Shown: positions 40,904-51,439, counted from the stretch's first letter. The stretch is 52,062 nt of DNA from a virus (IMGVR_UViG_2531839330_000009); one strand, 5' to 3'. Notes: a model not told the origin generated them from the letters alone. A program made the numbers and translations.

Positions 40904-41533
40904 CAACAGAAAACCCCGTAAAAGCTGCATTGTTTAGCATGTTTATCTAACGGTTTGTAACTTCTGTTCTAACGTCCGCTATCACTTACAAACGCCTATA
41001 CGTTGTTATGGGCTTTGGTAGTGTAACACGTATGGGCGAGTAGTTCCCAGGCTCAACCTCGTAACAAGTTCCTTTGAAGCTGGAAGACGTGCCACCGTCT
41101 CTAAACCTTCTACCAAAACTCTTAGCAAGATGTTCCACACCTGGCGCGGTGTCCAATGATGCTACACGTCGTGAGACGTTGCAGAGGATAAACAGGCTAA
41201 ATGATGGGAAGAGTTTTAAGTGCAATAGTGGATCAAAGCCCACCTCTTCAAAACCTAACTTGATCGGGAAAGAATCAAGCTCTAGCACGGTTTCGTCCAC
41301 CGGAGTACAACGGGTGCCTGATAAGAGAAGAACTGCTAAGACTTCATAGCTTTTGTGAAAAAGCCCTTTTTAGTGGATACGCCTACGGCGCTTATTTTTT
41401 GGTATAACCATCAAAGGCGCTTTATGGCTCCTATTGTCTTGAAAATGTATCTTTACTTGTATTGTGTTTTATGCGTAGTCTCCCTGTGTAGTATGTAACT
41501 TGTTAATTTTCATATGAATACAGAGGCAACACG

Positions 41534-41686
41534 ATGAAAAACATTGCAGCTATAAAACGTAATAACCGCAAGATTCACGCTCGTAAGTTCCTGTCTACGC
41601 CAGAGGGAAAAGCCTGGCTAGAGCGTAAACAGCGAGAGAACGAAGAAAGAAAACTCCTTAGTGAGTTGAAATGGCTTAAGGATTGA
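41534..41686 (+). CDS. small basic protein (50 aa), hypothetical
   Basis: ATG with AGAGG RBS 7 nt upstream; followed by a long hairpin. Confidence 0.3.
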   Translation: MKNIAAIKRNNRKIHARKFLSTPEGKAWLERKQRENEERKLLSELKWLKD

Positions 41687-41696
41687 ATCACCAGTA

Positions 41697-41738
41697 GGCG
41701 CATAACACATCCAGCGATCAAAGATGTGTTTATGCGCC
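41697..41738 (+). other. long imperfect hairpin (15-bp arms)
   Basis: GGCGCATAACACATC ... GATGTGTTTATGCGCC, then AT-rich tract. Confidence 0.4.
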
Positions 41739-42236
41739 TGATAGTGAAATTATTAAAGTTTTTTAGTTAATGTAGCCATTGCATGAACGATGATCGCTAG
41801 TGAATCGATTTTATCTCGAGGGGTAAAATAGATGAGGTATATGATGGTAACAATTACAGCTAAAGTAATTGTGGTTCTGCAGGTTTTTAAAATGGATGAG
41901 ATAAAGCGCATAGATACCCCCTATTGATTTAACAATAGCAAAGTATCATTTATTTTTTATTGCACGCAACATGCAAATTTTCACATATAATAGTTTACTA
42001 TTCACTTTGTATGGTGTCAACAAGATGATGTGTTGTTTTGTTTGATTTGTTCAAGATAATGTTTCATTTTCTCATCTATATAACTTGTGTTTTAGATAAT
42101 TTCACTAATTGTAAAAGTTACGTATTGCTTAATAGCTACCTTTTTATCTGAAATCGGCGCAGACGTGATCAATGTTTAACGCGAAGATCAGCGGCGTCAG
42201 GTCCACGCAGCGACAATTCTCAAATATCAGGAGGCA

Positions 42237-42794
42237 TTACGCTTCCTGCTCTTTCTTAATACGTTGCACTGTCTGTGTGCTGACACTGAAATCTTTTGCT
42301 ACGCTCCGAATTGATCCACCATTCGCGAGAGCGGCAACAATTCCCGCTCGATCAATTGCTTTTCCATTACCACGTTTTGCTATACGCCCAGCTGCCTTAG
42401 CTGCTGCGATCCCTTCACGTTGACGCTCAAGCATCATTTCACGTTCCATTTGTGCCACTGCTGCAAGCACTGTGAGCATCATATTCCCTGCGGGAGAGTT
42501 CTTCCCTGTCTTAAAGTCTTCTTTATGGAAATGCACAGACACGCCGCGCTCTGTTAATTGCTCAACCGTTGCCAGTAGGTCGGCTGTATTACGGCAAAGT
42601 CGATCAATGCTGTGAACATGCAAAACATCACCTTCACGCACATAGTTCATCATTGCCTCAAACTGTGGGCGCTGGGTATTCTTGCCTGACGCTTTATCTT
42701 CAAAGACTTTATCAAGAGTTACTCCAGCTAATTGACGGTCTGTGTTTTGTTGGACAGTCGATACCCTAATGTATCCAATATTAGCCATTTTCAT
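42237..42794 (-). CDS. small serine recombinase (resolvase/invertase family)
   Basis: 185 aa; IGYIRVSTVQQ catalytic Ser motif, C-terminal HTH; start at 42794 or 42788. Confidence 0.8.
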   Translation of the reverse strand: MKMANIGYIRVSTVQQNTDRQLAGVTLDKVFEDKASGKNTQRPQFEAMMNYVREGDVLHVHSIDRLCRNTADLLATVEQLTERGVSVHFHKEDFKTGKNSPAGNMMLTVLAAVAQMEREMMLERQREGIAAAKAAGRIAKRGNGKAIDRAGIVAALANGGSIRSVAKDFSVSTQTVQRIKKEQEA

Positions 42795-48789: not shown

Positions 48790-48940
48790 TAAAGCGTTAA
48801 TAGACGATTCCCCATCGGGGCAATAAGGGTAAAGGGATTAACTAACCTGTAGGCGCAAATACAGTAACGAATCTCTTTGCCCTTTTTGTTTTTCTACTGT
48901 CTACAAACCCAAATAAAAATATATATGTGAGAGAAAACCA

Positions 48941-49138
48941 ATGAATACAGAAAACCCACAATCCTTTATTCTTAAGGCTGTAAAAGAACTGGCAGCTATT
49001 AGCGATGACTCAATAATCAATGTCAGTGCCTTATGCAGAATGCTTTCAATTGATGCAAATAATGTGCGGCAGCGTGTGTTTCAGACTGGGTGCAGCACTT
49101 TTGAGGCAATCCAATATTATTGCTCTAAAAAACAATAA
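48941..49138 (+). CDS. hypothetical small protein
   Basis: 65-aa ORF. Confidence 0.25.
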   Translation: MNTENPQSFILKAVKELAAISDDSIINVSALCRMLSIDANNVRQRVFQTGCSTFEAIQYYCSKKQ

Positions 49139-49172
49139 CAAACAATAATCATAATACAGGGAAACAATTAAC

Positions 49173-51074
49173 ATGTTAGAAATTACCGCCTCACGAATTA
49201 GTAATGTTGTGACATTTACCACTGATTTCAAGAGCTTACAGAAAGCTAAGAATGAAGTGGATAAGCTACAAAAGAAGATGCAGGGGATCAAACCTGTGCA
49301 AGTGGCGGCAGCACGTCAGAAAGATTTACAGAGGCTGGGAAAAGAGATTCAGCGCCAGCATGATCAGCATGTTAAGCGGGCTGTTAAATCTGAGACACAG
49401 GCATCTAAAGCCAGCACTAAACAGAAGCTACAGGAAGCTAAAAACCTCGCTAAAGCACAGGCTAAACAAGCCTCAATTGCTGAAAAGGCAGAGATCAAGC
49501 GCCTTGCATCATATCGCCAGTTACAAGGCATCAAGAACAATTCCCGCTATGGCGAAGGGATGGATATTAAGAAATATCACGATGCTCTACGTTACATTAA
49601 GGAACAAACCCGCCTCTATGAATCCGGCGCTATATCGCAAGCGAAGATGAATGCCCTGATCCGTGACCGCATCACATTAGAAAGACGAGCCGCAGCCGCT
49701 GCTACGCGTCGTAATGCTGCCGCTGGGGGTGTATATCCAGTTACTTCTAAGAAGCTCCACAAAGAAGGTGTTAGCGGCGGTGGCGCGTTAATGATGGGCG
49801 GTGTTGGTGGCATTATCGGCGGCGCTGCCGTTGGCTTAGGAAGTATGGCTGTATCTGCTGGAATGGAAAAAGCCCGTGAACGTATGGAATTGCAGAAGAT
49901 GAGCGATCTGGTAGGCGCAGACTCCAACCAGGTGGCTGCAATGGTTAATTGGGGGAGGGCAAACGGTGTATCAAGTGCAAGCGTGGACAAGACCACTGAC
50001 AATATCAAAGACTTAAACGAACGCATTGGTCATCAAAGCCGAACTGCTGAATGGGATAGTAAGAAAAAAGAGTGGCGAGGCGGGGAAGGATCATTAAATG
50101 ATATTCAGAATGCCTTTGCATGGAACAAAGATAAGATAGCTTCCTACCAGGGGCGACCGCTGCAACTCCTGCAAGACGTGGTGAGAGAAGGTGAACGCCG
50201 AGGAATGACTAAAGAAGCCATCATATCCCTGATCGAACCATTAGCAGACGATGCCAGCCATTATCTCAAGATGTTTTCCCGTGATGGGGAAGAGTTCCGT
50301 AAAACGATGGTTGATATGGAAAACAACGGGCAGCTACTGACAGAAGCACAGAAAGAGCAATATCGCGCAGCTAACAAGACAGCTACAGCCTTTGACCGTC
50401 TGACAGATGGACTATCGAATCAGGCTATTTTGGGCTTCTTTGATGGCATAGCCAACATGCCAGCACTCAAACCGGAAGAAAGCAAAGCCTTACAGAATGC
50501 AGCTTATGGTGTTGGTGCATCGTTCGGGGATTTGGCTAAACAAGGCGCTGTATTACTGACCTCTATGACTTCTTACGGGAATCAAATCACAAGCTGGATT
50601 AATAAACATCTTAGCCGTGGTGAGAATGATAACCGACCTGAGACACAAAAGGTTATGGACGCTGTTACAGATGGGGAATGGTCGCCATCAACGATTATCA
50701 ATGAAGGTATTCGTTATGCAACTGGACTCGATACGAAAGATGTAGGGCGTATTGTGCGCGGTGAGGAAACACAGTCCGGCGTTCCAGGGTGGTGGACTGA
50801 TTTAATTAATGGCAATGCTAACAGCTACGGATCAACCCTTGTTGCACGTAAAGCAGAAGCCTATCAGCCGACTGTAAGCCTACAACGTCAATACGCAACT
50901 CCTGTTAACGTGAATGCACAGGTTACGGTGCCGAGTGATATGATCTCTGTTAACGTCATCCCTAACGGTCCCGGCTTTCAGGATTTAATCCGCACTGAGA
51001 TCAGAGCGAACAACAATCAGTTTAGTTCGAATCTGATTCTTAGCACGTTGTCAGGACAGAGTAGCGTTAACTAA
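49173..51074 (+). CDS. tape-measure-like protein (coiled-coil N-terminus, glycine-zipper hydrophobic segment)
   Basis: 633 aa; KQ-rich helical N-terminus; GGGALMMGGVGGIIGGAAVGLG segment. Confidence 0.4.
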   Translation: MLEITASRISNVVTFTTDFKSLQKAKNEVDKLQKKMQGIKPVQVAAARQKDLQRLGKEIQRQHDQHVKRAVKSETQASKASTKQKLQEAKNLAKAQAKQASIAEKAEIKRLASYRQLQGIKNNSRYGEGMDIKKYHDALRYIKEQTRLYESGAISQAKMNALIRDRITLERRAAAAATRRNAAAGGVYPVTSKKLHKEGVSGGGALMMGGVGGIIGGAAVGLGSMAVSAGMEKARERMELQKMSDLVGADSNQVAAMVNWGRANGVSSASVDKTTDNIKDLNERIGHQSRTAEWDSKKKEWRGGEGSLNDIQNAFAWNKDKIASYQGRPLQLLQDVVREGERRGMTKEAIISLIEPLADDASHYLKMFSRDGEEFRKTMVDMENNGQLLTEAQKEQYRAANKTATAFDRLTDGLSNQAILGFFDGIANMPALKPEESKALQNAAYGVGASFGDLAKQGAVLLTSMTSYGNQITSWINKHLSRGENDNRPETQKVMDAVTDGEWSPSTIINEGIRYATGLDTKDVGRIVRGEETQSGVPGWWTDLINGNANSYGSTLVARKAEAYQPTVSLQRQYATPVNVNAQVTVPSDMISVNVIPNGPGFQDLIRTEIRANNNQFSSNLILSTLSGQSSVN

Positions 51075-51147
51075 GTTTAACGATAACTAATAATAAAGCG
51101 GGGGCAATATTTATTGCTTTCCGCTCATTACACAAGGATTAATATAA

Positions 51148-51439
51148 ATGGTTATCAAAGAAAGTCAGATCAACAGCACATCTAACATTAATACATCTAA
51201 CAGCAAGGTTAAATCTGATAACGGATTTGCCATTATATGTAGCAACCTGAATAACGAAAATGCATCAACGATAGCCAGTTATAAAGCTATTACTTTTGAC
51301 GCTGTTCCGGCAACTAAGGTTTCACGTTCTGCCGATGTTACATCGTATCCTGTGCAGGATGGTAATGATGTATCTGATAATGTCAGGATCAAGAATAATA
51401 AACTTATGCTTTCAGGCATTATTACAGAAACACCATTAG

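Follow-up and report, generated by a model that had tools for sequence, protein, structure and literature searches.

A second integrative element at thrW

The stretch of DNA analysed here (the window, 52,062 nucleotides of the viral record IMGVR_UViG_2531839330_000009) begins with proA and thrW, the gene for tRNA-Thr(CGT) at 1369-1444, and carries a prophage followed directly by an AT-rich island, the element with which this study is concerned. The prophage is bracketed by a 50-nt direct repeat that corresponds to the 3' end of thrW, with copies at 1399-1448 and 40857-40906 (98% identical, one mismatch); it spans 39.4 kb, and its integrase gene (1459-2622, minus strand) adjoins thrW. The GC fraction is 0.35-0.47 over 39-52 kb, compared with 0.50-0.60 in the prophage late region. 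Homology to islands of other genomes ends at 51439 and an element resembling insertion sequence IS5 begins at 51440; the right end of this island copy lies beyond the window. A preliminary description, made from the sequence alone, had proposed foreign AT-rich DNA from attR up to a gene interrupted by IS5, and the repeat and the fall in GC bear this out, the interrupted gene being the Dit-like tube-initiator gene described below. It had also correctly placed no tyrosine integrase at the left boundary; in related islands the integrase lies at the right end.

Escherichia coli C8 carries the same DNA directly after thrW (96% coverage, 98.3% identity), without the prophage. There the island continues with a complete gene for a 218-aa 'phage baseplate protein' and, on the opposite strand, a gene for a 425-aa tyrosine integrase, and it ends just past the latter with 28 nt that repeat the 3' end of thrW, 23 nt of them exactly. 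The far boundary and third att copy anticipated in the preliminary description are thus found in a relative, with a total island length of 12.9 kb; a yagP fragment and paoD lie beyond the right repeat. An intact variant of the island occupies the same thrW slot in FORC_029, and E. coli ATCC 43886 likewise has an intact copy, with 99.8% identity over 47100-51074. Over their first 70 nt the C8 and FORC_029 junctions differ slightly from that in the window, and a junction between thrW and the left arm like that from 40857 onward, with thrW intact and no prophage, is present in strains 2013C-3264, RM14721 and CU42ET-1.

No similarity could be detected between the integrase of the thrW island and that of the prophage beside it. 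The gene contents of the two elements, described earlier as dissimilar, share only a serine recombinase at 38% identity. The island is a second integrative element, independent of the prophage that precedes it, and the two unrelated elements stand in tandem at thrW, employing different integrases on the same tRNA end. The structure does not in itself show the order of arrival, and would also accommodate a prophage that came first and an island that came second. As the thrW-island junction occurs prophage-free in several other E. coli strains, a history in which the island came first is simpler: judging from these sequences, the island probably occupied thrW before the prophage integrated and displaced it 39 kb downstream. 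The tandem arrangement set out in the preliminary description therefore stands, but the order it implied, integration of the island at a regenerated att site, is probably the reverse of what happened. Insertion of the IS5-like element into the tube-initiator gene is a later event in the window copy.

Structural genes of the island

The features of the island are listed in Table 1. On its structural model, the 343-aa protein, previously called a putative structural protein, is a major capsid protein of the HK97 fold and the lambda gpE type. Pfam does not detect the protein itself, but homologues with 42-49% identity carry PF03864. Its AlphaFold2 model (mean pLDDT 62, pTM 0.64) has a long spine helix and matches HK97-fold capsid proteins with E values of 6e-13 to 1e-6; the first matches are to PhiTE, ICP1, Bas63 and Sf14, all of them large virulent myoviruses, followed by YSD1, lambda and Chi. 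A profile built from 13 family members matches chain 9zbi_A (E 0.009), a relative of the capsid protein of phage phAPEC8. The ratio of non-synonymous to synonymous substitution rates (dN/dS; Nei-Gojobori estimates, unsaturated pairs) is 0.08-0.10 for the capsid gene, indicating strong purifying selection.

Table 1. Features of the thrW island and its borders, in window coordinates.
Feature	Position	Strand	Basis and remarks
Middle att copy	40857-40906	+	Prophage attR and left junction (attL) of the island; aligned with the C8 and FORC_029 thrW-island junctions
Left arm	40907-42236		Holds the two open reading frames (ORFs) that follow, both annotated as coding sequences (CDS) in C8
50-aa highly basic ORF	41534-41686	+	76-78% identical in Raoultella, Citrobacter and Kluyvera islands
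52-aa hydrophobic ORF	41753-41911	-	31-37% identical in related islands
Small serine recombinase, 185 aa, resolvase/invertase type	42237-42794	-	PF00239 1e-38; phrog_125 'DNA invertase' 2e-62
Large non-coding control region	42795-44302		Iterons, AT-rich stretch, hairpin block, 50-nt motif, promoter
Iterons, two and a half 22-nt units	43297-43362		Repeat analysis
AT-rich stretch	43363-43445		Within control region
Hairpin-dense repeat block, 450 bp	43446-43900		Closed by a 34-nt inverted repeat, 43481-43514 / 43830-43863
50-nt motif TTATCAAAACCTCGTTAGAACGCATTTTAGAGCGTTTTAGAG	44024-44075		About 75 nt upstream of the early promoter
Sigma-70-like promoter	44150-44178		Near-consensus TTGACA-17-AATAAT with extended TG; precedes the early operon
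60-aa protein gene	44303-44485	+	Conserved across the family
55-aa ribbon-helix-helix (RHH)-like protein gene	44507-44674	+	Conserved across the family; no Pfam match
208-aa winged-helix protein	44726-45352	+	HTH_36 E=1.7e-5 (24.9 bits, cutoff 25); phrog_270 1e-7; phrog_428 5e-6
Two small ORFs, 81 and 102 aa	45620-46173	+	Identical in C8; no family matches
Second non-coding region	46174-47115		Upstream of the structural module; no conserved ORF; 0.5-0.9-kb gap in relatives
Small protein (66-79 aa), first structural-module gene	47116-47355	+	60% identical in glyU-type E. coli island; CDS in C8
127-aa protein directly upstream of the capsid gene	47360-47743	+	90/90 loci; dN/dS 0.19-0.24
Major capsid protein, 343 aa, predicted HK97 fold, lambda-gpE/PF03864 lineage	47758-48789	+	Fold model; homologues with PF03864
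65-aa helix-turn-helix (HTH)-like protein between capsid and tape-measure genes	48941-49138	+	Position conserved in all aligned members
Tape-measure protein, 633 aa, intact	49173-51074	+	phrog_16051 4e-72; Phi92_gp134 in PDB 21vq 7e-49
Dit-like tube-initiator/baseplate gene, 5' part, truncated by IS5-like element	51148-51439	+	98% identical to first 97 aa of the 218-aa C8 protein
IS5-like insertion sequence	51440-52062	-	Partial, exits the window; outside the island; 92% identical to K-12 IS5A, reverse orientation

The protein described earlier as tape-measure-like is indeed a tape-measure protein. The corresponding gene in C8 is frameshifted into ORFs of 205 and 427 aa (C8 locus 20710-22610). 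The complete Dit-like protein of C8 matches PF21821 (5e-28) and Phi92_gp135 (2e-68), and also the tube-initiator proteins of PhiTE and Pam3.

The 127-aa protein resembles the head decoration protein of phAPEC8 and phi92 (gp115 and Phi92_gp123, respectively) in position and size, and its position, taken by itself, suggests a decoration or scaffold-like role. Homology to the decoration protein was tried and rejected: hhalign against phAPEC8 gp115 gave a probability of 0.9%, and an AlphaFold model of the protein was unusable (pLDDT 42). The 65-aa protein gives weak HTH_17, Sigma70_r4_2 and HTH_24 matches in several members and may be a late regulator or a packaging specificity factor. It was also considered as the counterpart of the tail chaperone gp105 of phAPEC8, to which it shows no similarity, being HTH-like instead.

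Scans of the island proteins against Pfam, PHROG and NCBIfam gave no match to portal, terminase or protease, to tube, sheath or fibre proteins, or to a holin or endolysin. A portal protein or large terminase is expected to have at least 400 residues; island ORFs fall below this length except for the 633-aa tape measure and, in some relatives, a helicase-type initiator of 482-489 aa. Nor do some 13 kb leave room for a complete set of virion and lysis genes.

A conserved family of islands in Enterobacteriaceae and Yersinia

Proteins homologous to the capsid protein (42-84% identity) were found in E. coli, Klebsiella, Citrobacter, Cronobacter, Enterobacter and Pluralibacter, and homologues are encoded in genomes of Buttiauxella, Kosakonia, Kluyvera, Phytobacter, Scandinavium, Raoultella and, at 29% identity, Yersinia. 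A conserved layout surrounds the gene in E. coli, Klebsiella, Citrobacter, Kluyvera, Buttiauxella, Phytobacter, Raoultella, Kosakonia, Scandinavium and Yersinia. It begins with the tRNA gene, a short left arm, a small recombinase gene on the minus strand and 1.5-2.4 kb of gene-free DNA; the genes for the 60-aa and RHH-like proteins, an initiator-like gene, a few small ORFs and a gap of 0.5-0.9 kb come next. The late genes then encode proteins of 66-79 aa, 125-128 aa, the capsid protein (339-347 aa), 62-66 aa and the tape measure (599-634 aa), and the island closes with an optional gene for a Dit-like protein of 218-225 aa, the integrase gene on the minus strand and attR. Members measure 12.7-14.3 kb and occupy tRNA-Thr(CGT), tRNA-Gly(CCC) or tRNA-Leu(CAA) genes, with 21-45 nt of the tRNA 3' end repeated at their two borders. 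Their distal integrases form one family (21-80% identity) of the tyrosine type with a DUF6538 N-terminal region.

Family counts refer to 94 loci, 80 of them from metagenomes, the denominators being the loci with enough flanking sequence. A 125-aa gene precedes the capsid gene in all 90 loci that could be scored, the tape-measure gene follows it in 53 of 54, and the family integrase lies downstream in 48/54; the Dit-like gene is present in half (27/54). The small recombinase stands on the left in 43 of 47 loci, as a tyrosine type in 33 and a serine type in 10. In 290 of 5,426 complete E. coli genomes the structural module is matched at least in part, and in 86 of them at least 80% of it is present. 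Exchange between islands is by clean modules. Many E. coli islands combine the capsid gene of the window with another allele of the tape-measure and Dit-like genes, the breakpoint lying at the start of the tape-measure gene, and the serine recombinases of the thrW island and of one glyU island are 100% identical although their capsid proteins are only 56% identical.

Departures from the common arrangement were also seen. A divergent branch represented by two metagenome contigs (L080 and L082, capsid 58% identical) lacks a family integrase downstream of the tape-measure gene, and its Dit-like gene is located upstream of the capsid gene, among the early genes. A near-complete island copy flanked by IS3-family elements is carried by the 166-kb plasmid NZ_CP126938.1 of strain APEC E19019, which has a chromosomal copy as well. 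The 50-aa basic ORF near the att site is better conserved than the capsid gene.

With phage structural genes adjoining an integrase gene at a tRNA gene, the islands might be remnants of a once-complete temperate phage that have no present function. The IS5 insertion in the window copy, the frameshifted tape-measure gene of C8 and the annotation by PGAP of nearly every gene as hypothetical would fit such decay. The same minimal genes, however, recur in the same order and at the same size in at least ten genera and at three tRNA genes, and independent decay would not converge on such a fixed set. Defective prophages are irregular, neutrally evolving remnants of a full phage gene set that are specific to single lineages, whereas the islands keep their layout in 94 loci with dN/dS values of 0.08-0.24, and their reading frames retain their length down to 29% protein identity (intact at 29-56%). 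Among the 94 loci, no portal, terminase or tube gene was detected near this capsid gene. We therefore regard the decayed-prophage explanation as very improbable. By the evidence of sequence, with dN/dS near 0.1 and frames intact, the genes are functional and not prophage debris. The preliminary description had suggested a degraded satellite or prophage, or a plasmid-like integrant; satellite is the best of these options, whereas 'degraded' applies only to the local IS5 insertion and is wrong for the family, which is compact, conserved and under purifying selection. The islands apparently constitute an undescribed family in Enterobacteriaceae and Yersinia; we found no published description of it in the full-text literature, the coverage of which is incomplete.

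Early genes and non-coding DNA

The early side of the island matched expectation in most respects: the small serine recombinase and, next to it, about 1.5 kb of gene-free, repeat-dense DNA are as previously described. This DNA holds 22-nt iterons and many inverted repeats. The DNA-binding genes noted there fared differently. The winged-helix gene is borne out by its HTH_36 match. The RHH assignment of the 55-aa protein is tentative, its positional equivalents in relatives giving sub-threshold RHH_4, HicB and TacA1 matches.

The PHROG families matched by the 208-aa winged-helix protein are replication-initiator families, and we propose that it is a replication initiator that acts on the iterons and that the small recombinase is a multimer resolvase. 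The slot of the initiator is filled by winged-helix proteins (HTH_36 or DUF6945) or, in some members, by a DEAD/ResIII helicase-type protein of 482-489 aa, and the recombinase slot in most members holds an unrelated tyrosine recombinase of about 186 aa. Such non-orthologous replacement at fixed positions suggests that the positions stand for functions, which we infer to be replication initiation and multimer resolution. Every relative examined has a gene-free region of 1.5-2.4 kb with family-specific iterons at the same place; the iterons differ between members along with the initiators, as expected of an origin that co-evolves with its initiator. After the initiator gene C8 has about 0.9 kb of extra DNA (ORFs of 52 and 127 aa) that is missing from the window.

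The hairpin block consists of degenerate units of 106-120 nt containing TTGTGCAAT, GCGCTGTGCGC, GCGTAAGC and CTAACGAT, the number of which varies by strain. Both strands are predicted to fold well as RNA (z -6.5 and -7.4); sequences of the block are too similar among strains for a covariation test, and no Rfam match was found in the non-coding DNA at E<=1. The 34-nt repeat pair, with 315 bp between its arms and about 700 bp from the recombinase gene, was considered as an invertible switch and rejected: the orientation was the same in 14 of 14 loci, which differ in the block only by loss or gain of repeat units. A motif, GATGTTAG(T/G)TAGTAGAT, occurs at 43549-43575 and 43935-43958 in the first non-coding region and, inverted, at 46561-46595 in the second, and could be a shared operator joining the early and late modules.

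The motif at 44024-44075 recurs with 83-89% identity in gene-free gaps of unrelated phages, namely a Pseudomonas jumbo phage of the Elvirus type, phages of Pectobacterium and Erwinia, and the T5-like KPN4 of Klebsiella, whose copy lies within a non-coding gap of 2 kb. At this motif C8 has an extra TTAGAGCGTTT unit. The prophage next to the island has repeats of its own, six tandem 15-nt TCAAAATCTGACCCG-like units at 8359-8481 that are probably the iterons of its replication origin. Its right end (37417-37746 and 39500-40856) holds the serine recombinase homologue that is 38% identical to that of the island, together with genes that in other records bear the annotation of an AraC-family regulator and of an 'integrase core domain' protein. 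These right-end genes occur at many E. coli loci and on plasmids and are probably IS-borne cargo.

Taken with the integrase, the iteron origin, initiator and resolvase resemble the backbone of an integrative plasmid. The islands could accordingly be read as integrative, replicative plasmid-like or mobilisable elements that have picked up phage-derived cargo and move by conjugation or generalised transduction; one copy does reside on a plasmid, and a small RHH protein of one relative gives a weak NikA-like match (E 0.015). Against this, scans with Pfam, PHROG and NCBIfam revealed no relaxase, oriT or coupling-protein signal, and the only large genes conserved throughout the family are those for virion proteins. 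We consider a plasmid-like nature quite unlikely.

Relationship to phAPEC8/phi92-type phages

The island's tape measure and tube initiator are homologous to, and syntenic with, those of phAPEC8/phi92-type virulent myoviruses (Stephanstirmvirinae). Over 450 aligned positions the tape measure and phAPEC8 gp104 share 32% identity (E 1e-62), and the N-terminal 68 residues of the island protein match as well; both tape-measure alleles of the islands have relatives only in this phage group. In Phapecoctavirus genomes the gene that directly follows the tape measure encodes a protein with 61-65% identity to the Dit-like protein. The alternative allele of the Dit-like gene reaches 80-84% nucleotide identity, in pieces within a 377-nt span, a similarity which implies fairly recent exchange between the islands and these virulent phages. 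Gene order agrees as well: phAPEC8 has decoration (132 aa) and capsid (333 aa) genes, and later the tape-measure and Dit-like genes, and the island has genes for the 127-aa protein, capsid (343 aa), HTH-like protein, tape measure and Dit-like protein.

Shared regulatory or packaging DNA was also sought. In blastn searches of both island non-coding regions against the phage collection no phAPEC8-type phage was recovered, comparison of these regions with the 1.5-kb gap of phAPEC8 itself (5513-7021) gave nothing significant, and the PHIRE promoter motif of phAPEC8 is absent from the island. This gap in phAPEC8 is free of genes, and the phage also has a gene for a 'putative site-specific recombinase' (gp216).

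The islands as putative phage satellites

We favour, with modest confidence, the view that the island family is a phage satellite, likely of phAPEC8/phi92-type virulent myoviruses. As would be expected of satellites in general, relatives of the island have their own tyrosine integrase and att repeats, and they lack the genes for a complete virion and for lysis. More tentatively, the window may hold the E. coli member of an undescribed, widespread satellite family of phAPEC8/phi92/rV5-type myoviruses that supplies both the capsid shell, from its HK97-fold protein and a partner, and the tail core. It is likewise conceivable, if short of probable, that these satellites are unlike any yet characterised, depending on the helper for portal and terminase as well as for tube, sheath, baseplate and fibres, and forming virions that are chimeric in both head and tail.

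Under such a model, infection by a phAPEC8/phi92-type phage would induce excision of the island and its replication from the iterons, with the small recombinase resolving multimers. The island capsid protein would assemble a small shell, sized for about 13 kb, on the portal and scaffold of the helper, and the helper terminase would fill it with island DNA. The island tape measure and tube initiator would replace those of the helper in tails that are otherwise helper-built. With a tape measure of 633 aa, against 662 aa in phAPEC8, such a tail would be some 4 nm shorter at about 1.5 Å per residue. The outcome would be a chimeric particle that spreads the island and lowers the yield of the helper.

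By analogy, the tail-core step has a direct experimental precedent in the PLEs (elements that resemble phage-inducible chromosomal islands) of Vibrio cholerae. All PLEs encode a tape measure (tmp) and a tail assembly chaperone (tac), and PLE11 has a baseplate hub gene as well (PMC12987554). PLE11 virions contain the PLE tape measure and exclude the tape measure and hub of the helper ICP1, and deletion of PLE tmp lowers transduction by 96-99.9% (PMC12987554). These PLE proteins have diverged from their ICP1 counterparts to 20% (tmp), 20% (tac) and 41% (hub) identity, and putative tmp genes were noted in other putative satellites (PMC12987554).

The structural homologues of the island could instead serve to poison phage assembly. 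The island would then be a defence island, mobile through its integrase and unpackaged, whose capsid, tape-measure and tube-initiator homologues act as dominant-negative decoys against rV5/phAPEC8-type phages and protect the clone. At 61-65% (tube initiator) and 32% identity (tape measure) the proteins are near enough to their phage partners for co-assembly, packaging functions were not recognised, and tail-assembly interference is documented as a defence strategy (PMC11364771), with Rta a further case (PMC12987554). A decoy, however, needs neither the narrow size range of 12.7-14.3 kb nor an autonomous module of iterons and initiator, and the complete capsid protein, its strong purifying selection and its constant partner gene suggest a working shell rather than a poison. 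A search for defence cargo in the island gave no meaningful PADLOC matches. Moreover, interference and satellite transfer can coexist, as they do in PLEs. Defence as the sole function thus appears unlikely.

Several points weigh against the satellite interpretation. The island capsid protein is only 24% identical to that of phAPEC8, over the N-terminal half (pairwise E 8e-4). The choice of helper rests on two proteins, and the helper could be another, unsampled phage. Neither a packaging site or small terminase nor a helper-sensing regulator or phAPEC8 promoter motif could be identified in the island, and the role of the 125-aa protein is putative. We found no sign in the sequences that the island is excised, replicated or packaged: none of the 80 metagenome contigs had the terminal overlaps of a circular form, the phage collection contains no satellite-sized record with this capsid gene, and the record names of the IMG/VR matches suggest prophages called in assembled genomes and not virion DNA. 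One gene is disrupted in the window copy, and one in the C8 copy.

If the satellite reading is true, E. coli and related bacteria harbour a satellite family that has been overlooked and that targets large virulent phages used in phage therapy and biocontrol, namely relatives of phAPEC8, phi92 and rV5, and could explain differences between strains in susceptibility to phages of these types. It would also offer an E. coli system for studying the purpose of tail-core replacement by satellites, a behaviour demonstrated to date for Vibrio PLEs only, and would show how a satellite with neither portal nor terminase of its own could fix a small capsid size through the capsid protein it encodes.

Comparison with known systems

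The cryptic prophage CP4-6 of E. coli K-12 lies in the same slot, between thrW and yagP/paoD, and like the island has its integrase gene (intF) at the distal end. Kinship between the two was examined and rejected: tblastn at E<=1e-3 found no match for any of 15 island proteins, and by blastp the island integrase shows only 24% identity to IntF over about a third of the length of the two proteins.

The satellite P4, of about 11.6 kb, uses a tRNA gene for integration, as the island does, and possesses an autonomous module for replication; the tRNA-Leu(CAA) gene occupied by one family member is leuX, the integration target of P4 itself. P4 makes small capsids as well, but does so by resizing the P2 capsid with Sid, having no capsid or tail protein of its own. 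The functions that define P4-like satellites (Sid, Psu, Delta and the alpha primase-helicase) had no PHROG match among the ten island proteins scanned, and no Pfam match either.

A capsid protein together with a tape measure has also been reported, in a preprint, for the EPIPs of Mycolicibacterium aichiense, which alter capsid size and tail length (PMC12822802). Compared here by description only, EPIPs differ in having a small terminase, head-tail adaptor and stopper, scaffold and serine integrase, and in depending on a temperate phage of actinobacteria (PMC12822802).

Phage-inducible chromosomal islands of Proteobacteria that form capsids (cf-PICIs) are similar in size to the island, encode an HK97-fold capsid protein of their own and rely on a helper for the rest of the virion, and putative tmp genes are present in some of those sampled (PMC12987554, Extended Data Fig. 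10 legend). They also encode a portal, protease, head-tail adaptor and connector and the terminase subunits, and steal complete tails (PMC10085698), whereas in the island the capsid protein stands without this set. SatelliteFinder treats tail genes as forbidden components of satellites (PMC10085698). With its tape measure and Dit-like tube initiator the island falls outside the cf-PICI and PICI models on this rule, which would explain why the family has gone unnoticed; current finders would miss it, and excluding tail genes from satellite models hides real families.

Closest in outline are the PLEs. Like the island they are small, AT-rich and integrative, with their own initiator and iteron origin; they parasitise a large virulent myovirus, as is proposed for the island; and in both the tape measure and a baseplate or tube-initiation protein are diverged homologues of the helper's, those of PLEs yielding chimeric tails (PMC12987554). 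The capsid protein of ICP1 is among the closest structural matches of the island capsid protein. PLEs, however, have a large serine integrase and take the ICP1 capsid protein, which they resize with the external scaffold TcaP (PMC10085698), whereas the island sits at a tRNA gene and encodes a tyrosine integrase and a capsid protein of its own. Of the tmp, tac and hub cluster it has the tape measure and a tube initiator; no tail assembly chaperone was recognised, the gene before the tape measure being HTH-like. PLEs are about 18 kb long and known only from V. cholerae, with ICP1 as helper (PMC10085698), and the island family inhabits Enterobacteriaceae and Yersinia; this comparison, too, is by description only.

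[quoted passage not shown] By analogy with these systems, we propose that the island may work like a blend of two of them, replacing the tail core as a PLE does and building on its own capsid protein as a cf-PICI does.

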